Positions 21,252 to 31,597 of a stretch of 32,000 nucleotides of DNA are shown here, in pieces; the first letter of the stretch is position 1, and the number at the start of each line of letters is the position of its first letter. This DNA is from Candidatus Saccharimonadota bacterium. GTDB lineage: Bacteria; Patescibacteriota; Saccharimonadia; Saccharimonadales; Saccharimonadaceae. Location of the stretch: assembly GCA_002421785.1 (NCBI GenBank), contig DIRZ01000002.1:330001-362000 (forward strand), in the 5' to 3' direction. The notes under the pieces were generated by a model. The model saw only the letters and a program-made list of their open reading frames with translations, did not search any database and was not told where the DNA came from. The position numbers were made by a program, and so were the translations under genes.

Positions 21252-22328
21252 GGACACGTTAAAGCGGAATTCGACCACGTCGTCGGGTTTCATGACATAC
21301 TCGCGGCCCTCGGTGCGGACTTTGCCCGCAGCTTTGGCGGCGGCTTCTGAGCCTGCGCTCACCAGGTCGTAATAATCGACGATTTGCGCTGCAATGAAGC
21401 CGCGCTCGAAATCAGTGTGAATCACTCCGGCAGCTTGGGGAGCGGTAAAACCTTGTTTAATCGTCCAGGCGCGAACTTCTTTGGGCCCTGCGGTCAGGTA
21501 GCTTTGGAGGCCGAGGATGTCGTAGGCAGCATGAATCATTTGCGTCAGGCCCGCTTCGGGAATGTCGTATGCAGCCAATAGCTCGGCTGCGTCAGAAGGG
21601 TTTAACCCTTTAATTTCGTCCTCAAGCTTTGCGCAAATGAATAGCGCATGGCTCCCCTCGGCGAGTTCTTTTAGCTCGGCTTTTTTGGCGTCATCTCCTA
21701 GCGTTTCTTCATTTACATTGAACACGTAAATGACGGGTTTGGCTGTCAGCAGGTGTAAGTCCTGAATGAGTTCTGTCTGCAAATCACTCACATGGGTAAG
21801 CAGGACGCCACTTTCAAGGTGGGTTTTGAGTGATGCAAGGTATTCGGCCACACTTTTTGCCTTTGGGTCGGCTTTTGCTTCTTTGTGCAGGCGTAGTAAT
21901 CGGGTCTCAATGGTCTGCAGGTCGGCTAGCGCAAGCTCGGTATTGATTGTTTCGATGTCACGCTTGGGGTCAACGCCATCTTCGACATGTAATATGTCTG
22001 AATTCTCGAACGCCCGAACAATATGCACGATGGCGTCGCATTGGCGAATGTTGGCCAGGAACTTGTTGCCCAGGCCTTCACCTTTGCTAGCGCCAGCGAC
22101 GAGGCCAGCGATATCTACAAAGGTAACGGTTGCGGGGATGATTTTCTCGGCATTATAGAGCCGTGCTAGCATGCCAAGTCGCTTGTCGGGTACTGGCACG
22201 ATACCGGTGTTAGGCTCAATGGTGGCGAATGGGTAATTAGCCGCCAAAATGTCGTTATTTGTCAGGGCGTTAAACAGGGTAGATTTGCCTACATTTGGTA
22301 GGCCAACGATGCCTATACTGAGAGACAT
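21246..22328 (-). CDS. ychF: ribosome-binding ATPase YchF (Obg-like GTPase family)
   Basis: [24 protein letters not shown]1 motif. 360 aa with a TGS-like C-terminus. Confidence 0.95.
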
Positions 22329-22755
22329 GGTTGACCTTTTCGTAGGCTGGCGTTAGTGATGGTAAGGGAATGTGTCCCCATATTGTGATCTCCTTTGGAC
22401 TTGCAACGATTTTATCGATGACGCGCTCTATTATAAATTTCTTTTGCTCAAACTCTAGCATGCCAATTTTCCGGGTTGCTTTAAGAATGAGCTCTTCAAT
22501 GTCTATTTTATCAATAATACCTCTGTTTTTCGAACTATTGGCCAATTGTGTGGACAGAGTATTTATTTGCTTGTTGGTTTCGGACATCTGCGAGCTGAAT
22601 AACTCTTCGTCGATCAGACCTTTGCCATATGCATCCAAGTACCGTTTCTGCTCGTTCTTAAGCGATCTAAGAGACTCATCATATGATTGTGAGTTCGCGT
22701 TCGTCTTCTGTATGATTCGCTGCTCTTGCCATCTTTCAGCATGCTCACGGATCAT
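22270..22755 (-). pseudogene. C-terminal remnant of a large serine recombinase (coiled-coil and tail only, no catalytic or zinc-ribbon domains)
   Basis: YLDAYGKGLIDEELFSSQM...coiled coil...FIIERVIDKIVASPKEITIWGHIP matches the typical tail of large serine recombinases. The recombinase-like part is about 22366-22755. The ORF then reads out of frame into the ychF 5' end. Confidence 0.55.
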
Positions 22756-22800
22756 TTTAGGATCCGATAGGAGCTTATTCGCATAGGCGTCGAACCAAAT

Positions 22801-23061
22801 ATGTGCAACACGGCTACTGAAGCTGTCTTCGAGAATTTTGAACTACCAGTACAGGAACGCAAATTGTTTTATGAGCGGGTATCTCAGTATCAAACGATGG
22901 ATCATACTAAAGTTGCCGAAAGTTTTATTAATAATCTGAGCGTAGATGATTTTCCGGAGACCTACAAAGACTCTTCAAACAGAATACTTGGTGAGCAGTT
23001 TGGCGATCTCTCGGCTGCAATTAAGAGGTATGTAAATGATCAACTCAAAGCAGTTAAGTGA
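22801..23061 (+). CDS. hypothetical protein (86 aa)
   Basis: ORF only, with no clear SD and no recognised motif. It is the first plus-strand ORF of the island. Confidence 0.35.
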   Translation: MCNTATEAVFENFELPVQERKLFYERVSQYQTMDHTKVAESFINNLSVDDFPETYKDSSNRILGEQFGDLSAAIKRYVNDQLKAVK

Positions 23062-23143
23062 TGCTGATATAGCAGTTTTAGTGGACTATTTTAAACTTTT
23101 AATAGAAATTGAAACCGAACAGAGAATTAACAGAGACGAATAA
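23036..23143 (+). CDS. possible 35-aa protein (MINSKQLSDADIAVLVDYFKLLIEIETEQRINRDE)
   Basis: Hand-translated. AAGAGG lies 8 nt upstream. It overlaps the previous ORF by 26 nt. Confidence 0.25.
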   Translation: MINSKQLSDADIAVLVDYFKLLIEIETEQRINRDE

Positions 23144-23176
23144 CCGTTCAGTGTGCGATAATTATCTTTAAGAGTC

Positions 23177-24004
23177 ATGAGTTTTTTAGATAACTACGTA
23201 ACGCTTGAAGAAGTACAAGAGGACAATTGCCTATGGCTTAAATACCAGGTTGTTTACGCTGCGGATGCAACGGTAGACATGTTGGCCGATAAAATAGCCG
23301 AGTTGATAATCGAAACAAGATGCCCTGCTGTAATTTACAATCAATGGGTTGATGCGCATGCAGAGGCGGTGACCTTATCCGATATTCAAAAGGAGGCGCT
23401 TCGTATATATATCAAGCCGAGCATAGGGTTACCCGGTAAGTCGGCAACGGATAATGAGTTACAAGCGGTAGTTGCAGAGTATTTCTGGTATGAGATTGTG
23501 AAAAGTAGGGAAGAGCCTGAAGATTTGGTGGATATCCATAAGCCAAGCCTCAGGGTGACAGAGCCGGGTGGCGATGGGTTGGTGATTTATCAGGCTGATT
23601 ATGAATCGTATATTTTCCGTTTGTGGGAGGTTAAGAAGCATGTCACTGATGTCTCGGCTACGAGTAAAATCACCAAAGCTAGTAAGCAGCTGAAAGATAA
23701 CGGGGCGGAGTATCTTGCGAAATTAAGCAAGGTTGAACAAGAGCGTGATCGTGAATATCCGGGACTTTCTCAATATTACGCAGAGCTTGTGCCTAAGTGG
23801 TTAGAATCTTCAAGCGATGCGCACGCGGGGGTTTCGTTATCAAAAGACGACGTAAGCACGGTGACGACGAACCCGATAGGAATTATGAAGACTTATCTAC
23901 CGGGCTTAAACGGCGATAAGCAGCTATCGGCAATTATTATATCAATGCCCGATTTTGCTGAATTTACTAAAAAAGTACAAAGATCTTTATGGAAAGATAT
24001 TTAA
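23177..24004 (+). CDS. PD-(D/E)xK-like nuclease candidate (HamA/DUF1837-like by architecture, unverified)
   Basis: 275 aa. Motif GGD133G...(17 aa)...E151-V-K153 after a helix AEYFWYEIV. AAGAG SD. The 3' end overlaps the helicase start by 16 nt. Confidence 0.6.
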   Translation: MSFLDNYVTLEEVQEDNCLWLKYQVVYAADATVDMLADKIAELIIETRCPAVIYNQWVDAHAEAVTLSDIQKEALRIYIKPSIGLPGKSATDNELQAVVAEYFWYEIVKSREEPEDLVDIHKPSLRVTEPGGDGLVIYQADYESYIFRLWEVKKHVTDVSATSKITKASKQLKDNGAEYLAKLSKVEQERDREYPGLSQYYAELVPKWLESSSDAHAGVSLSKDDVSTVTTNPIGIMKTYLPGLNGDKQLSAIIISMPDFAEFTKKVQRSLWKDI

Positions 24005-27000
24005 AGCTTGAGAATATAGAGATGGCACTTGGCGGTCAGGCTAATTTGCCTACCGCAGAAGAACTTCAGGTTGCATTATCTAAAGCGGAGTCTGACCTTT
24101 TTACCGAACAAGGAATTATATCAGAGGACTTGTTAAAATCTGCATGGTATTTGTACAGTGTCGCGGCGGCCCGCAAGAGCCTCGAGTTATATAGTGTTGA
24201 CAGGCAACGTCGGGCATACCAAGTATCGGCGCATATATTTGATTTAGCACTTCAAATTAATAGGGATAGCGCAAACGATCAATTAAGCTTGGTGTTTGCC
24301 GCGCAAGTCGGGTATATGAAGGGTGATCTCAATCCTAATGCTGCTGCTATTTATAGGAGGTTTGGATATGCCGACGGTGTTGCCGACATTGAGGACGAGA
24401 ATTTACCGTTGATTATAGGCACTATGTTTTTGGCTATGGATAGGTCGAGACTTTTTAGAGTATTGCCATTCTTAAGACAGAAAGTTGCAAGCTTTGAGTC
24501 CTCGACAGAAGGACGACTGGGCGTGTTAAGTCTGTTACTCGATGCATGTTGGGACTTACTCCGGTATGTTTCTTACGGAGATAATGAAGCGTATATTAAC
24601 TCACTAACTTCATTAGAAAATATTGTTAGGTCTGATGTAGGCTTGGATGATGTAGATATGAGATGGGTCGCTGCGCACCTATTGGATATTGCGGAAGACT
24701 TTGGCAATTCATCAGTTTGGTCGATGCTGCCACCCGATGTACCTCCTGAAGCGGCTCGAGCCATGACCCTAGGGTCACCGCCTGTACTTAATCTATGGCC
24801 GCCACAGGCAAGGCTTATACGAAGCGACGATACGAACAATCCATTACTGCTGACTACTAAAAGGTTGTTCTTATCCATTCCAACGAGTGCAGGTAAGACG
24901 CTTCTCGCACAGTATATCGCTGTAGCGCACTTAGCACAAAATGGTGGGGGAATTTGCTTTGTAGCGCCTACGCATAGCTTGTGTAGAGAGATCAGAAAGT
25001 CTTTAAGTGATCGACTTCGTCTTCTTAGGCAAGAGGTTGCTCCGGAAGTTCCTGTTGGTTTTTTAAGTTTTTTCGATGATGAGATCGAGGGGAATGAATC
25101 GTCACCAGTTGAGGTGGTAACTCCTGAAAGATTAGCCTTCATGCTAAGGTACCGGCCGAAAGAAACCCTCGATAAATTTAAGCTTTTTATTATTGATGAG
25201 GCACATCTAATAGCTGAAGACTCCAGAGGCTTGGCTCTAGAGTCGACGTTAAGTCTTTTGCAGATGCTCACTAAAGACAGCGAACATAGAATTATTCTTA
25301 TGTCCTCATCACTGGGCGAGGGTGGACACGTGGTGGACTGGATGGGTGTTGAAGGATCCAACAGAACGTTCCACTCAGAATGGCGAGGGCCTAGAAGGCT
25401 ATACGGATTGTATAGCGTTGAACGTAGCGATACTGAGCCGCAAGTTATTGAGCATGAGCACCGAGGCGTGAGCGAGAGACATTTTCTGTACAAGAACAAT
25501 GGCGTGATCGCACTGAAACTGGCGGATACCCCGCAAATTCATAGATCCCTTATTGCTCGTGATGTAGGAGTTACTCGTACTCGACCAAGAACTCGAGGAA
25601 ATAACGAAGGGGCTTATAAAGTTTATTCCGAAAAATCGACACCGTTTTACAAAACCCTAGTTCCTCTTGTAGATAGTGTGGCGAAGTCTGGCCCCGTTCT
25701 AGTTATTATGCCTACAAGGGTGATGGCTCAAGGTTTAACCCGTGCAATAGCGGAGGCTAGGCCGGTAGATGACCAAATGGATGAGCTGGTTGAACTTGCT
25801 GAAGCCAGGGTGGGTTCAGAGCACCTAATTACGAAAATGCTAAGAAAAGGCGTTGCTTTCCATCATGCGGCGTTACCAGTTGACTTACAGGTTGCGATTG
25901 AACAGGCCGTAAGAAGTGGAAAGATAAATATATTAGTGTCAACTACGACACTTGCTGATGGTGTTAACTTACCGGTAAAAACTGTGATCATTGGGAGTAC
26001 AGGCGCCTATGGAGCGGAAGGTTTTAACGACTATATTTCTGGTGCAAAGTTGGTTAATGCAATCGGAAGAGCAGGAAGAGCGGGCAGGGAGACTGAGGGC
26101 TGGATTATTCTTGCTGACAGTCAATATAATGAACAAAACTTTAGTCGACTCGAGATGGCTAATCCATCAGAGAGTGCTCTTGTTTCTCGGTTGACTAGTG
26201 AGATTGCGTTACTATCATTATCAAATATGGAAGCCTCGATAAGGGGCGGTGAGCGTGAACTGTTTGATTTTAATGACGCTTTTGCAAGTGATTTCGCAAG
26301 TTATATTTGGATCGTAGCGAACACGCTTCTGGAAGTTAAAGATGCAGTTGTTGTCGAAGATATCGATTCGTTCCTGGAGTCGACATTAGCATGGCGGCAG
26401 ATGGATGAAGATCTGCGTACTCGTTGGAAAGACATTGCACGCGAATCCTTTGCTATATATGAAGCAACGCCCGCTGCTAAGAGGAAAAGGTGGGCACAAT
26501 CTGGTATTAGTGTCTCTTCTGCTCGTAAGCTGGAGGAATTGTCTGACGATATATTGGGTCGTTTTTTAATTGCCTCAATCGATGCGGATGGCAACCTAGA
26601 TCCTAATCAGGATGCTGACTTACTTTTGACCGATGACACACTAGATCTTCTCTTCACGCTACCTGAAGCTCCGAAGACGGATTTCAGACCTTTTAGATCG
26701 GCCAGTGCAGACAATAGCATACAAGTGAGTCATCGACAGCTTGTTAAGGACTGGATTAACGGAGTGGATTTGACACAGCTTGTCGAAACGCACTTATCGA
26801 GTATTGAAGATAGAGAATATGCTTACGAGATATTAGGAGACTATATTACAAACGTTTTTCAGCACTATCTGCCTTGGACGCTAGGCGTGCTAATTGACTG
26901 GGTGAATATTAACTCTGATGAAGTAATGGAGGGTAAGCCACTTATAAACCCCCAAATTGCTTCATTTGTCAGGTATGGCGTGGATAGCCCTTACGCACTG

Positions 27001-27516
27001 CAACTAATGATGAATGGTGTAATCTCCAGGCAACTCGCCCTAGAGGTTAATAGGGTTTTTGTGGATGACGATTCATTAGACCTTTCGAAGTGGTTACAGC
27101 GCATGAAGATTAGTGGCTTCGTTGATTCGTTTGGTGTTAACGAAACGGAAGCACGAGAGTTATTAGCGTATCTAAGACCAAAGGATAGTAATGTTTTGGC
27201 TGACTTTATATCAGGAGAAGCTGTTGAATTGGATTACAGAATATCTTCGGATAGCGAGCTGGTGGGAGATGTCGAATTTGCATATTTAGACGGCGATACT
27301 ATCATGCACAGACTTGGTATCAGACAGGGCAGCATGACTTGTGATATGCCTTTACGACTATATCTTGATATGGAGGAGATTCTTCAGAGTGGATTGCCAT
27401 ATAAAGCAACTCTATTTCCAAGAAACGGAGGCGGATATGGCTTGCGAGTTAAACTTCAAACATTTGTTGAAGACCGGGAAGTTTCTGTTGAGGATTTTGA
27501 CCAGTTCGATTTTTAA
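23989..27516 (+). CDS. DEAH-box SF2 (Ski2/Hel308-like) helicase, 1175 aa (HamB-like by architecture)
   Basis: LWPPQ (Q-like), PTSAGKT (motif I, K303), APTHSL (Ia), TPERL (Ib), IIDEAH (II, 403-406), MSSS (III), GVAFHHAALP (IV region), TTTLADGVNLP (V), GRAGRAG (VI). An alternative start exists at 24022. Confidence 0.9.
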   Translation: MERYLKLENIEMALGGQANLPTAEELQVALSKAESDLFTEQGIISEDLLKSAWYLYSVAAARKSLELYSVDRQRRAYQVSAHIFDLALQINRDSANDQLSLVFAAQVGYMKGDLNPNAAAIYRRFGYADGVADIEDENLPLIIGTMFLAMDRSRLFRVLPFLRQKVASFESSTEGRLGVLSLLLDACWDLLRYVSYGDNEAYINSLTSLENIVRSDVGLDDVDMRWVAAHLLDIAEDFGNSSVWSMLPPDVPPEAARAMTLGSPPVLNLWPPQARLIRSDDTNNPLLLTTKRLFLSIPTSAGKTLLAQYIAVAHLAQNGGGICFVAPTHSLCREIRKSLSDRLRLLRQEVAPEVPVGFLSFFDDEIEGNESSPVEVVTPERLAFMLRYRPKETLDKFKLFIIDEAHLIAEDSRGLALESTLSLLQMLTKDSEHRIILMSSSLGEGGHVVDWMGVEGSNRTFHSEWRGPRRLYGLYSVERSDTEPQVIEHEHRGVSERHFLYKNNGVIALKLADTPQIHRSLIARDVGVTRTRPRTRGNNEGAYKVYSEKSTPFYKTLVPLVDSVAKSGPVLVIMPTRVMAQGLTRAIAEARPVDDQMDELVELAEARVGSEHLITKMLRKGVAFHHAALPVDLQVAIEQAVRSGKINILVSTTTLADGVNLPVKTVIIGSTGAYGAEGFNDYISGAKLVNAIGRAGRAGRETEGWIILADSQYNEQNFSRLEMANPSESALVSRLTSEIALLSLSNMEASIRGGERELFDFNDAFASDFASYIWIVANTLLEVKDAVVVEDIDSFLESTLAWRQMDEDLRTRWKDIARESFAIYEATPAAKRKRWAQSGISVSSARKLEELSDDILGRFLIASIDADGNLDPNQDADLLLTDDTLDLLFTLPEAPKTDFRPFRSASADNSIQVSHRQLVKDWINGVDLTQLVETHLSSIEDREYAYEILGDYITNVFQHYLPWTLGVLIDWVNINSDEVMEGKPLINPQIASFVRYGVDSPYALQLMMNGVISRQLALEVNRVFVDDDSLDLSKWLQRMKISGFVDSFGVNETEARELLAYLRPKDSNVLADFISGEAVELDYRISSDSELVGDVEFAYLDGDTIMHRLGIRQGSMTCDMPLRLYLDMEEILQSGLPYKATLFPRNGGGYGLRVKLQTFVEDREVSVEDFDQFDF

Positions 27517-27663
27517 TTTTTTTTGCGCATGGACCAAGTACGGAAAAACGAAATGTAAAAGGGAAGGTAGGGGTATGTTTATTTCTGAGAACTAGAGGGG
27601 GGGGGAGAACTTACACACGTAGAGAAGGAGCAAGTCCTGAGGATAACTACCTCTGTTGACTGT

Positions 27664-28662
27664 TTAAAGCTCATCATCCTTTGTTTTTCGGTTGAAAGGT
27701 GAGCTGATTCTGGTGTGCGGCTTTGTTGCCCTATGGTCTTTGAACATTTGGCTTATCCGTTTCGACTTTATGTTACTAAATATCCACCTGTCCGCGTAGT
27801 AGTAGGTGAAGAAATTTATGTGATCAACGTCGTTGCCACCGTAATCAAAAGTACTCATCTCCATATTTTTATTGATTAGCAGTATACAACGAGTTGGTGT
27901 GATCGGAATTTGGAAGATGGCATTAATATAGCCCAGACCTAGTGCTTTTTGCTCGGGGAGGCCGTAGTGAGTGACGGGATTGTCTGATGTTACAAAGACT
28001 TTCGAAGTGCCCTTAGTACTTACTAAAACGGCCTGTTTGCGTTCCATAAGTATTAGATAAAGATCTTTGGTGATAGATAAAGTATCACCGAGAAAGTGTT
28101 GATCCATATAGTCATACTCAATTTCGAACTTGTCGTCTAGTACAGAGAGCCTCGTTTGTTCAATTTTTTCTTGGTCGTACTTTTCGCCAAATACCTTAAA
28201 TGTATCTTGGTGGAATTTGTCTTTATTTGATGCCAGAGTTTTTAAGTAGACGAGAGACATTTGCCCCATTGATGTTGCTCGGTGCTTACGCTCCTGAATG
28301 TTGCGTGTATGTAAGTAGGCAATATACGTGAGGAGATCTGCCTGTTCTTTTTCCGGCAAAGTGAAATAGCCATCAGGCATACTATCTAGCTTGTGAAGAA
28401 GGTTTGCGCCTTTATCATCGATTTCTGCAAATACATTTTCAAGTGCGGCATTCTCATCTCCGGTTGATTGTTCAGTATAAGTATATAAATCTCTTTGGGC
28501 TGCCACATTCTTAACATTGCTCGGGTAGGGTTCCTTGTCCAGTTCGTATGCGTAAATCTGATCTGGCTTGCCGTCAATCGCAAACCTACGTAAATAACTT
28601 TGAGGCACAAAGTGATGCAGTGCTCGCAACTTGTCGTCTTTCGGATAGTTTTTATCTGCCAT
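27664..28662 (-). CDS. DUF4238-like protein (332 aa from ATG 28662)
   Basis: N-terminal LHHFVPQSYLRRF motif, characteristic of DUF4238 as I recall it. The track start 28668 is a TTG; the ATG two codons downstream is preferred. Confidence 0.7.
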   Translation of the reverse strand: MADKNYPKDDKLRALHHFVPQSYLRRFAIDGKPDQIYAYELDKEPYPSNVKNVAAQRDLYTYTEQSTGDENAALENVFAEIDDKGANLLHKLDSMPDGYFTLPEKEQADLLTYIAYLHTRNIQERKHRATSMGQMSLVYLKTLASNKDKFHQDTFKVFGEKYDQEKIEQTRLSVLDDKFEIEYDYMDQHFLGDTLSITKDLYLILMERKQAVLVSTKGTSKVFVTSDNPVTHYGLPEQKALGLGYINAIFQIPITPTRCILLINKNMEMSTFDYGGNDVDHINFFTYYYADRWIFSNIKSKRISQMFKDHRATKPHTRISSPFNRKTKDDEL

Positions 28663-28668
28663 AGTCAA

Positions 28669-28674
28669 ATTATA
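28669..28674 (-). promoter_or_regulatory. -10 box TATAAT 6 nt from the DUF4238-like ATG
   Basis: Reverse complement of 28669-28674 is TATAAT. The ATG is the reverse complement of 28660-28662. No SD sequence. Confidence 0.35.
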
Positions 28675-28900
28675 CTAGGAGTGATCTAGAGATAGGATAT
28701 TATTCTGTATGTATTGAGATGAATAGCCGCGTCCACTGTCGGGTTTTGGCATCATGAAGGTGATTGCGAAAGGTATAGCTAAGTCCTCGCTATGCCGATG
28801 GATAAACTCATAGTTATAGTATAGAGGTAGTGGGCCTTCATATCAAGCAGTACAGGGGTAGTGGTAATCGTGCGGAATAGTTGCGGTGGGGCAGGGCGCG

Positions 28901-28909
28901 TGATACCAT
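28901..28909 (+). promoter_or_regulatory. extended -10 (TGA-TACCAT) 7 nt from ATG 28917
   Basis: TG at 28901-28902, TACCAT at 28904-28909, ATG at 28917. Confidence 0.35.
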
Positions 28910-28916
28910 AAGTGAT

Positions 28917-29438
28917 ATGAAACGCATGGGTCGGCGCACATTTATTCTCCTGTTTGTCGTTTTAGGAGCGTTGCTCGTCGGGGCGATTATTTACATTGTC
29001 TTTTTGCTCATGGCTAATCAGCCGAACGTGAGTGACGAAAAACCAATTATCCCCGTTCCACTTTCACAGGTATGTACAGACGACATGGTGCGGCGCGTTG
29101 GTCAGCCAATCGCTGATTCTGATATTGCCGCGATTCGGGCTGTGTACGATGAATTTAAAGACAACACAGCCTACACTGGCGACGCAACCTGCAACTATAT
29201 TGCAACGCGCTACTTCATCGCGATTGGTAATGTCGACGAGGCAAAGACCAGCTTGAATGCTCTCAAATATGCCATTAGCGCAGGTGGAACTGTTAGCATG
29301 AACTTTGCGCCACCCGCTCAGCCGACAGAGGTGCTTGAGCAAGTCATTGCAGACATTGGGCTGAAGAAGGATAACGGCATGAGTAAGACAACGGCCGAGG
29401 AGCTAAATGAAATGGACAAGGTCGCGCCACAGCAATGA
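28917..29438 (+). CDS. single-pass membrane protein (173 aa)
   Basis: MKRMGRRTFILLFVVLGALLVGAIIYIVFLLM signal anchor. Its stop overlaps the next start (ATGA at 29435-29438). Confidence 0.65.
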   Translation: MKRMGRRTFILLFVVLGALLVGAIIYIVFLLMANQPNVSDEKPIIPVPLSQVCTDDMVRRVGQPIADSDIAAIRAVYDEFKDNTAYTGDATCNYIATRYFIAIGNVDEAKTSLNALKYAISAGGTVSMNFAPPAQPTEVLEQVIADIGLKKDNGMSKTTAEELNEMDKVAPQQ

Positions 29439-31597
29439 ACAAATTTGTAATTCGCCTTAGTATTGCGTTGGCACTGGGGGCCGGTTTAGTCGTGATTGCG
29501 CCAGCGCAGCCCGCAGGGGCGGCGTATAGCAGCGCGCAAATCGAAGATATGCTCGAAAATGGTGTTGCGACGGCTCATGGGATGGATGCATATTGTTTTG
29601 ACAACATGCGCAGTCGAGCATACAGCAGCAACTTTACTTCGACCGGTGGTGGTGACTTGCGCAATGTTATTAATAGCGGCTCATCCTATGACTACGCGAC
29701 ATGGCTCTCAAAGCGGGGGCGGGGGAATGCTGCCGTACCCGTGACGGTGAACGCAGGTACGACGCTGCTGCCTTTGCAGATAAACGACGTACTCTTTTTG
29801 TGTGGGCCACTCGTCAGCCCAAACCTTGACGGTTCACCACCGTGTAGTACGAGTATCTATGGAAGGCACATCCTATACGCCAACAGTACGGGTGGCACAC
29901 CTGCCTCGCGTTGGATTGTTAACGACTGGAATGCGAATGACCGCGCTCCAAATGCGTTTGGTTCTGGGTGTATGTACCCCGCAAAAGCGTTTGAGCGTAC
30001 GAAGATTGTTAGCCTTTCGGTAGCAGGTGATTCGACGATTCCGGGCACCGTGTCTGGCGGTGCGGGTAGTGTGTTCAATACGTTTCGTAACGAAACAAGT
30101 CGCTATTGGTTTGCCACACCGATTAACGTAAACTTTAATGCTGCTAGTCCTATCAACGCGAGCGGCAGGATCCATATCGTTATGCGCTACAAAAAGTTTT
30201 CCGCCTATCATACAACGAATGAATATAGCGCAACCAAGGGGTGTCAGGCGAGTGGTCCATCATCCGTCACAAATGGATGGCTGAACGTCGATGACTGTGG
30301 TATTCAGGAGGCGCACCTCTATATCCGCCTTGTGCTCGCCAGCGACTTTAACCTTTCGCCACAGATTAGCATTAGTGCGCCTCATATCTCGACTGTGGGT
30401 GGAACCGAAAGGGTGAGTCCGTCAGTTGTTAACTCGGGGACGCTGGCAGCAGACCGTGATATCGAGTGGCGCGTCACGCGATTTGTGTTAGCGCCAAATA
30501 GGAACTATGGTACCTCGCCTGGGTCAAACGTCCCTTGTACGTATTTTACGGGATATCAAGGCGCGACATGCCAAACCATTGCGACCGGGACACGGCGTTT
30601 TGCGCGCGGGACTACCAGTCTTGCGGCATTTGATGATGCGATTGGCGCATATGCAATCGGCACCAAGATATGCTATGCCACGTCGGTTAACCCGTATAAG
30701 TTTGACGTTAATGAATGGCGCCATAGTGTGCCACAATGCACCGTGGTGGGTAAGCAGCCTACAGCGCAACTATGGGGTAACGACCTACGAACAGGAAGCG
30801 CCTTTACAGGCACTGGTAACTCTAACGCAAAGGCGGTAGGCGCGCTCATCGCTGCACCGACTGGCTACAAGGGGACGTGGGTGGAATATGGCGTATTGGC
30901 TCCAAGGGCAGTAACGTTTTTGTCTTCCGGGTCTGGACTGGCCCGGTCGGGCGCACTGGCGGCACAGGCTGAATGGAGCAAACTGACGGCAGCAAACACT
31001 ACCGCGGTATACGGTAACTTTGTGCCGACAGCGGCGAGCCTTGGGCTTCAGCCTGATATCGCAGCGTATTTCTTGCAGCCGGGACTAAAAGGAATTACTG
31101 TCGACAACGCTCCCGGTAATCTTTCACTAGGGAATATGCTTAACGTAACAAAGGCCAATAGTCGTGTGTATGTACGCCTAACGGGAACGGTGACGATTAC
31201 GGACAATATCACGCTTGATGACGATACGAACCTTCAAGACAATAGTCTCTTTCCGCAAATCGTGATTATTGCAAATAATATTAATATCCATAGTAATGTC
31301 AGCCGCTTGGACGCATGGCTCATCGCTAAGGCAGACGCGGGGGGTGTAGGGGGTGTTATTAATACCTGCTCGAACCAGCCTGCGACACTGACAAGTGCCA
31401 TATGCGACACACCGCTCGTCGTGAATGGCCCTATGATTGCAAAACAGCTCTTACTGCGCCGAACGGCTGGTGATTTAGGCACGCCAGCAGAGATTGTAAA
31501 CTTGCGATCGGACGCCTACTTATGGGCGAACTACATCAGTTCACTCAATAGTAATTGGGTGACAACCAGTTCGTCCGAGCTACCACCTCGCTACTAG
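29435..31597 (+). CDS. large secreted protein of unknown function (720 aa)
   Basis: Sec signal peptide ...VIAPAQPAGA|AYSS. Multiple Cys. The C-terminal region has beta-rich, repeat-like character (VTITDNITLDDDTNL..IVIIANNINIHSNV). Confidence 0.8.
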   Translation: MNKFVIRLSIALALGAGLVVIAPAQPAGAAYSSAQIEDMLENGVATAHGMDAYCFDNMRSRAYSSNFTSTGGGDLRNVINSGSSYDYATWLSKRGRGNAAVPVTVNAGTTLLPLQINDVLFLCGPLVSPNLDGSPPCSTSIYGRHILYANSTGGTPASRWIVNDWNANDRAPNAFGSGCMYPAKAFERTKIVSLSVAGDSTIPGTVSGGAGSVFNTFRNETSRYWFATPINVNFNAASPINASGRIHIVMRYKKFSAYHTTNEYSATKGCQASGPSSVTNGWLNVDDCGIQEAHLYIRLVLASDFNLSPQISISAPHISTVGGTERVSPSVVNSGTLAADRDIEWRVTRFVLAPNRNYGTSPGSNVPCTYFTGYQGATCQTIATGTRRFARGTTSLAAFDDAIGAYAIGTKICYATSVNPYKFDVNEWRHSVPQCTVVGKQPTAQLWGNDLRTGSAFTGTGNSNAKAVGALIAAPTGYKGTWVEYGVLAPRAVTFLSSGSGLARSGALAAQAEWSKLTAANTTAVYGNFVPTAASLGLQPDIAAYFLQPGLKGITVDNAPGNLSLGNMLNVTKANSRVYVRLTGTVTITDNITLDDDTNLQDNSLFPQIVIIANNINIHSNVSRLDAWLIAKADAGGVGGVINTCSNQPATLTSAICDTPLVVNGPMIAKQLLLRRTAGDLGTPAEIVNLRSDAYLWANYISSLNSNWVTTSSSELPPRY

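Follow-up and report, generated by a model that had tools for sequence, protein, structure and literature searches.

Hachiman is a two-gene anti-phage system in which the nuclease HamA is encoded ahead of the helicase HamB. By published definition all HamA proteins carry the DUF1837 domain (PMC11914072, PMC13064477), and HamA and HamB are reported to co-evolve (PMC13064477). Systems with an active HamA that consists of DUF1837 only are classed as type I-A (PMC11914072) or type III-A (PMC13064477). Canonical Hachiman has been reported in 3.4-5% of genomes. The best-studied example is HamAB of E. coli ECOR31, with structures under PDB 8VX9/8VXA/8VXY, and an N-terminal helical bundle has been described as the HamB-specific domain that binds HamA (Tuck et al. 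2024, PMC12278908). Here, we describe a gene pair in a 32,000-nucleotide stretch of a Candidatus Saccharimonadota bacterium (contig DIRZ01000002.1, positions 330,001 to 362,000), which is referred to as the window and whose positions are used throughout. The pair consists of a 275-aa HamA-like putative nuclease of the PD-(D/E)xK type (23177..24004, + strand) and a 1175-aa HamB-type helicase of superfamily 2 (SF2; Ski2/Hel308-like; 23989..27516, + strand). The most fitting description is that of a rare Hachiman clade, cryptic in sequence and with the active-HamA architecture, which makes it a variant of a known system and not a new kind. In the literature searched, coverage of which is incomplete, no description of this clade was found.

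The two genes lie next to each other on the same strand, as hamA and hamB do, and share 16 nt (23989..24004, + strand; ATGGAAAGATATTTAA), which falls within the 4-17 nt overlap of canonical Hachiman loci. An earlier note, made from the letters alone, had described this overlap, a restriction-endonuclease-like motif in the small protein and a full set of SF2 helicase motifs in the large one, and all three descriptions hold. In the small protein, GGDG occupies residues 131-134 and E-V-K residues 151-153; D133 and E151 are thus separated by 17 residues, a distance of 18 positions. The helicase motifs are located at 298-304 (PTSAGKT), 378-382 (TPERL), 401-406 (IIDEAH), 438-441 (MSSS), 652-662 (TTTLADGVNLP), and 693-699 (GRAGRAG). 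The note left the choice between a divergent Hachiman and an unnamed nuclease-helicase system; the HamB matches by hidden Markov model (HMM) and by fold, the HamA fold, and synteny favor the former. The same 16-nt overlap is found in all 46 curated pairs of the family, and its pattern, ATGGA...T(AA/AG/GA), recurs in 51 of 64 loci when a simple first-start rule is applied. Most of the 46 curated pairs also have a GGAG-like Shine-Dalgarno sequence 7-12 nt upstream of the helicase start. From this layout the two genes appear to be transcriptionally coupled via the overlap, which is probably also a translational-coupling junction. A scan for promoters and terminators gave counts at or below shuffled expectation.

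Several methods of sequence comparison assign the large protein to HamB. Its Pfam domains are DEAD and Helicase_C, and 23 of its 25 best PADLOC matches are HamB models, the best being a HamB1 model at E 5.8e-67; some of these models span the N-terminal residues 74-476. In a phmmer search of PDB sequences, E. coli HamB (8vx9_B) was recovered at 7.5e-28 among Ski2, Brr2, and Hel308 helicases. A profile of 44 helicase homologues was aligned by hhalign to an ECOR31-type HamB, a Klebsiella plasmid protein annotated next to "Hachiman ... HamA", with a probability of 100% and E 5e-40 over residues 53-1052 (908 columns). As this span starts at residue 53, it covers the HamA-binding N-terminal bundle. 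The ATPase motifs of a Ski2-like SF2 helicase are intact: G302, K303, D403, E404, R694, and R697, which represent Walker A, the DE motif, and the arginine finger, are invariant in 46 of 46 pairs. Motif II varies within the family at residue 406 (window 25204-25206): 20 of 46 members read DEAH, as the window helicase does, and the other 26 read DEAQ; ECOR31 HamB has DEGH.

The AF2 model of the helicase (predicted local distance difference test, pLDDT, 83.7) suggests the same assignment. It comprises an N-terminal helical bundle (aa ~1-265), RecA1 (aa ~285-455), a beta-rich insertion (aa ~458-545), RecA2 (aa ~560-715), a helical region (aa ~720-1075), and a C-terminal beta-rich unit (aa ~1079-1156) that is a candidate beta-barrel. 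When this model was compared to the PDB with Foldseek, the top three matches were the HamB chains 8vx9_B, 8vxa_A, and 8vxy_B, all full-length, at E 5e-32 and template modelling (TM) scores of 0.64-0.69. The bundle expected of HamB (NAH/TPR) is represented by the profile alignment from residue 53, by the all-helical model of residues 1-265, and by the HamB fold match, and the binding of HamA by it is predicted. The OB-like barrel of HamB may correspond to the beta-rich residues 1079-1156; the TM scores to HamB are full-length values, but the sequence alignment ends at 1052. The earlier note considered the helicase unusually large. Its length is ordinary, since ECOR31 HamB has 1174 aa and six annotated HamBs range from 1042 to 1204 aa. 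HMM matches, profile alignment, and full-length predicted fold thus agree in identifying the large protein as HamB.

The small protein is predicted to be HamA-like in its fold and is not HamA-like in detectable sequence. Its AF2 model has a pLDDT of 92.8 and a predicted TM score (pTM) of 0.91, and shows the order alpha(92-110)-beta-beta(134-141)-beta(144-155)-alpha(162-183)-beta, which is canonical for PD-(D/E)xK enzymes. E101 is placed on helix 92-110, strand 134-141 begins after D133, and E151-x-K153 lies on strand 144-155. Foldseek returned exactly three significant matches in the PDB, all of them HamA (8vx9_A, 8vxy_A, and 8zue_A), with E 2e-6 to 5e-5, probability 1.00, and TM 0.52-0.63 over nearly the full length, from two independent structures. 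The best was 8vx9_A (E 2.2e-6, TM 0.59/0.63), and the next match came at E 0.07. The model has the PD-(D/E)xK core together with elaborations specific to HamA. Both predicted single-protein models match Hachiman chains. None of the viral predicted structures was matched by the small-protein model.

The predicted active site is conserved in the family. G131, D133, E151, K153, and Q171 are invariant in 124 members that share 21-68% identity, and D133, E151, K153, and Q171 are likewise invariant in all 46 intact pairs. Because of this invariance the motifs are not a product of chance. At the position of E101, 42 of the 46 pairs have E and 4 have Q. The predicted catalytic residues are E101, D133, E151, and K153, and at residue level the conserved D-E(x)K site of the active-HamA subtype is present. 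The E...D...ExK spacing is 32 and 18 in this family, compared with 34 and 20 in DUF1837 HamA.

Sequence searches with the small protein gave a different picture. The Hachiman signature that HamA carries, DUF1837/PF08878, was not detected. The PADLOC HamA models were matched neither by the small protein, up to E=10, nor by the 124 relatives, NCBIfam gave zero matches, and a phmmer search and two profile searches of PDB sequences with the small protein or its family were all empty. The protein is labelled "hypothetical protein" in RefSeq. As DUF1837 is undetectable by sequence, the relationship to HamA rests on fold, partner, and operon layout. One family of unknown function, PHROG 37270, was matched at E 3e-26 over nearly the full length, and its members may come from prophage regions. 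Carriage of the small protein by phages was considered and rejected, as tblastn against 50,697 deposited phage genomes found zero homologues.

The closest described systems differ from the window pair to different degrees. ECOR31 Hachiman is alike in its operon of two overlapping genes, of which the nuclease gene precedes the helicase gene, in the PD-(D/E)xK fold, intact D...ExK, and size (about 260-280 aa) of its nuclease, in its Ski2/Hel308-like helicase, which at about 1170 aa comprises an N-terminal bundle, RecA1/2, and a helical region, probably followed in both by a terminal beta-barrel, and in its location in defence islands and mobile elements. Unlike it, the window nuclease has no detectable DUF1837 signature, is 13% identical in the structural alignment, and belongs to a family with its own invariant GGDG, FRLWE(V/I)KKH, and Q171; the helicases are about 23% identical and differ in motif II, with DEAQ/DEAH here and DEGH in ECOR31. 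AbpAB, the type I-B Hachiman (PDB 8ZUE), also combines a HamB-type helicase with a partner of DUF1837 fold, and it is the DUF1837 part of 8zue_A that was matched at E 5e-5. However, AbpA, at 531 aa, has a Cap4 nuclease at its N terminus and a DUF1837 domain that is catalytically dead, whereas the window protein has a single domain and keeps its catalytic residues. The PADLOC candidate system PDC-M23 resembles the pair in its helicase, as the PDC-M23B model PDLC04531 matches residues 259-1039. All 124 small-protein relatives leave the PDC-M23A models unmatched, so both components are not found together here, and the B model scores no better than the HamB models and leaves the N-terminal bundle outside its match. 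Nothing published on PDC-M23 was found in the literature searched. Hel308, Ski2, and Brr2 share the Ski2-like SF2 motor core and a ratchet-like helical region, but have neither the HamA-binding bundle nor a partner nuclease, and their match extends over about 40% of the model.

The association of the two genes across genomes is strict. In a scan of one genome per species, the small-protein family was found in 67 of 185,579 species genomes, a lower bound limited by the search pattern. The helicase gene is directly downstream on the same strand in all 64 loci where this could be tested, and the remaining 3 loci reach contig edges; the earlier note had proposed such a test of co-occurrence. The pair is also present in the loci L004-L008, L011, L083, and L084. 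When distant helicase homologues (35-40% identity) were taken as the starting point, every gene found upstream was again a member of this small-protein family (hhalign E 1e-37 to 1e-61). Mirror-tree analysis of pairwise identities in 46 pairs gave r = 0.953, a value reached by 0 of 2000 permutations, and r = 0.906 among pairs with less than 60% helicase identity; the neighbour-joining (NJ) trees of small protein and helicase are congruent. A word-indexed search of 5.8 billion proteins recovered only 37 small-protein clusters, all of them lacking Pfam domains, and an exhaustive profile search recovered 339 clusters (50% identity) among 1.84 billion representatives. The family has a patchy distribution, is much less frequent than the rest of known, canonical Hachiman, and occurs as a rarity mainly in Actinomycetota, Chloroflexota, and Acidobacteriota.

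Members of the family are located in variable regions with many defence or mobility genes. The pair is carried by 17 plasmids (13 from Streptomyces, 2 from Deinococcus, and 1 each from Mycobacterium and Rhodococcus), on which the small protein is always named "hypothetical protein"; canonical HamAs in the same database are named as Hachiman proteins. Neighbours at individual loci include type I restriction-modification, LlaJI/McrB-like, Mrr, and Abi_C genes, a Schlafen-type helicase, NACHT, and a Lit-like peptidase, as well as toxin-antitoxin pairs, integrases, transposases, and conjugation genes. Among the 143 flanking open reading frames (ORFs) from 63 loci are genes for AbiEii, AbiJ, GmrSD, SspB, TOTE, and RmrA, for CapP-type regulators and Argonaute-associated effectors, and for a defence reverse transcriptase. 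The two genes stay together through inheritance and diversification, in regions that are variable and either rich in defence genes or mobile.

Three observations concern individual loci of the family. Frameshifted helicases occur at L020, L033, L039, L052, L057, L064, L068, L073, and L074, including the isolates Homoserinibacter, Streptomyces aidingensis, and S. specialis; tblastn similarity persists to about residue 1020-1160 in these copies, and the cause is decay or assembly error. On the Mycobacterium JS623 plasmid, the gene immediately preceding the pair encodes an XRE-family regulator (L011, 1443-2645). Peptidase_M78/helix-turn-helix (HTH) genes, which are CapP/CapH-like, account for 4 of the 143 flanking ORFs (flanks of L013-L078). 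The XRE and Peptidase_M78/HTH genes may constitute a DNA-damage-responsive regulatory module for some members.

Taken together, both proteins are predicted to carry the HamA and HamB folds, domain order, and catalytic residues, and we consider it quite likely that the pair is a Hachiman homologue that works like Hachiman. The clade has the architecture and the predicted folds of Hachiman, with no DUF1837 sequence signature detected. By analogy, an anti-phage function is inferred. Several findings weigh against this assignment. PF08878, a model now named HamA, is unmatched at E<=1 by the window protein, for which the earlier note had suggested this hmmscan search, and by 36 and 124 of its relatives, and verified HamA positive controls do match it. 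In hhalign, the small-protein family reached a probability of 0.1-1% with verified DUF1837 HamAs, used as singles or as a 10-sequence alignment, a shallow HamA profile given that, among the 120 HamA homologues listed, all were at least 78% identical. The HamA likeness is moderate (TM about 0.6, root mean square deviation 7 A, 13% identity) and comes from a predicted model. On the helicase side, the best HamB HMM scores only about 224 bits, and the candidate-system model PDC-M23B scores nearly equally (E 7.9e-63). In about 9 of 64 loci the helicase is frameshifted, and some copies are thus non-functional. The defence-gene richness of the 143 flanking ORFs stands without a background control.

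The strongest alternative is a sister system. It is unlikely that the pair represents a distinct, unnamed sister system in which a HamB-like sensor helicase works with a nuclease family of its own, marked by FRLWE(V/I)KKH and Q171, and responds to a trigger or acts on a substrate unlike that of HamAB. A related reading, in which a HamB-like helicase independently recruited an unrelated PD-(D/E)xK nuclease, or one related only at superfamily level, so that the HamA likeness is convergent or generic and trigger or substrate could differ, is quite unlikely. Similarity to DUF1837 is absent even between profiles, the family-own invariant FRLWE(V/I)KKH, Q171, and W104 are absent from HamA, another HamB-like helicase family (PDC-M23B) is held as a separate PADLOC candidate, and the published definitions put DUF1837 in all HamAs (PMC11914072, PMC13064477). 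Against this reading, the significant PDB matches are HamA chains only, with no other PD-(D/E)xK nuclease among them, and nearly full-length. Size (275 vs 259-280 aa), gene order, overlap, and catalytic-motif spacing are also like those of HamA, and the HamA-binding N-terminal region of HamB is kept and alignable. Moreover, given the reported co-evolution of HamA with HamB (PMC13064477), strong divergence of the helicase should go along with strong divergence of its HamA.

A second alternative is that the pair is a module of mobile elements that serves competition between elements or their maintenance, such as plasmid or integrative and conjugative element (ICE) exclusion or addiction, and is not dedicated to phages. 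The copies on 17 plasmids, in ICE-like or conjugative regions and beside integrases and transposases would fit this proposal. We regard it as highly improbable, since such locations are equally typical for defence systems, known anti-phage genes dominate the neighbours, and phages are the target of the characterized homologue (PMC12278908). As a third alternative, a role in housekeeping DNA repair, with the large protein as a Hel308-, Lhr-, or RecQ-type helicase and the small one as its accessory nuclease, would account for the Ski2/Hel308-like helicase core but is barely credible, given NCBIfam Hel308/Lhr equivalog scores of 124-128 bits against cut-offs of 887-1216 with no full-length Hel308 or Lhr architecture, a Foldseek match to Hel308 that covers the core only (TMq about 0.42, with E about nine orders of magnitude worse than for HamB), and a rare and patchy spread with a low-GC island, plasmids, and frameshifted copies in several genomes.

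If the pair is a divergent Hachiman, a mechanism may be outlined from the models for E. coli HamAB and AbpAB (PMC12278908, PMC11914072). The 275-aa nuclease would be docked on the N-terminal helical bundle of the helicase and held inactive while the helicase surveys DNA. Loading of the helicase on damaged or free-ended DNA, as formed in phage replication, and ATP-driven remodelling would then unleash the nuclease. The freed nuclease would degrade DNA indiscriminately, and the infection would be aborted.

In the window, the pair is located in a low-GC, foreign-looking variable island between ychF and pilus and surface-protein genes (22329..28880). The island has 43.2% GC, compared to 52.9% in the left flank and 51.3% in the right flank. 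The earlier note had recognized the lower GC content, a recombinase remnant, and a DUF4238-like gene here, and each was confirmed. The remnant is the C-terminal part of a large recombinase or integrase (161 aa, 22270..22755, - strand), which matches the PHROG 95 integrase at E 6.1e-10 over profile positions 452-562 of 651 and also has a weak CcrC match. It lies at the left edge of the island, where its 3' end shares 59 nt with the start of ychF, and does not belong to the defence pair. No flanking direct repeats, tRNA, or Rfam matches were found at the island edges.

The closest genomic relative is a Candidatus Saccharibacteria metagenome-assembled genome (MAG; L012), which carries the pair with 49% identity for the small protein and 56% for the helicase. 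The ychF junction of this MAG likewise has a recombinase remnant (L012 18-494; 55% identical, its frame still open), and different cargo genes occupy this insertion point. A small-genome epibiont, as the earlier note suggested, is a plausible host, and the sortase, type IV pilus genes, and other features encoded in the window are compatible with the Saccharibacteria lineage. The conserved remnant beside differing cargo suggests that the ychF junction is a recurrent integration hotspot, or that the remnant is a domesticated fragment. In crude NJ trees, the clade formed by the window and the Saccharibacteria MAG adjoins members from Chloroflexota and Acidobacteriota and lies outside the actinomycete clades. 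Acquisition from the actinobacterial hosts of Saccharibacteria was considered and is unsupported; this clade placement and the low GC content of the island argue against a recent transfer from such a host.

The DUF4238 gene (27664..28668, - strand) is convergent to the helicase gene and matches Pfam PF14022 at E 2.3e-37, PADLOC DUF4238-Pers at E 5e-11, and PHROG 29785 at E 4e-10. It is probably an independent single-gene defence candidate, separate from the pair. An 86-aa ORF (22801-23061, + strand) just upstream of the pair is unmatched in Pfam, PADLOC, NCBIfam, and PHROGs. A third conserved gene comparable to HamC was considered and rejected, because neither the DUF4238 gene nor the 86-aa ORF accompanies the pair in other loci, where the neighbours vary widely.

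Outside the island, the window encodes a sortase and type IV pilus genes. Two ORFs of 185 aa and 720 aa downstream of the island (28881-31597, + strand) are unmatched in the same four collections, and the 720-aa product precedes PilM-like pilus genes. On the other side, the segment 18622-21182 has 60-65% GC compared with about 52%, and encodes a secreted or anchored protein of 522 aa. Within this protein, a segment of ~100 aa (CNPVGVTSNI...GVACEVPIV) is tandemly duplicated, and the C terminus bears a membrane anchor; a sortase-like protein of 279 aa follows.

Literature and tools define Hachiman by the DUF1837 of HamA, and the clade described here would mean that Pfam, PADLOC, and NCBIfam fail to recognize the HamA of some HamAB-type systems. 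As loci with a cryptic HamA are scored as an orphan helicase and a hypothetical protein, the prevalence of Hachiman would be underestimated, especially in Actinomycetota, Chloroflexota, and Acidobacteriota. The family alignment, with its 339 clusters at 50% identity and invariant G131/D133/E151/K153/Q171, could seed a new HMM for their detection, and such a very distant HamA/HamB pair may serve as a probe of the features that are essential for interface and activation in Hachiman. Should the pair represent a distinct sister system, its presence in Saccharibacteria would place it among the very small number of suicide-type immune modules of an obligate epibiont, and one would have to ask how abortive infection is to be understood in a host-attached cell. 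Few defence systems have been identified in Saccharibacteria and Patescibacteria (PMC12366544), and the pair would add a helicase-nuclease immune module to this sparse repertoire.

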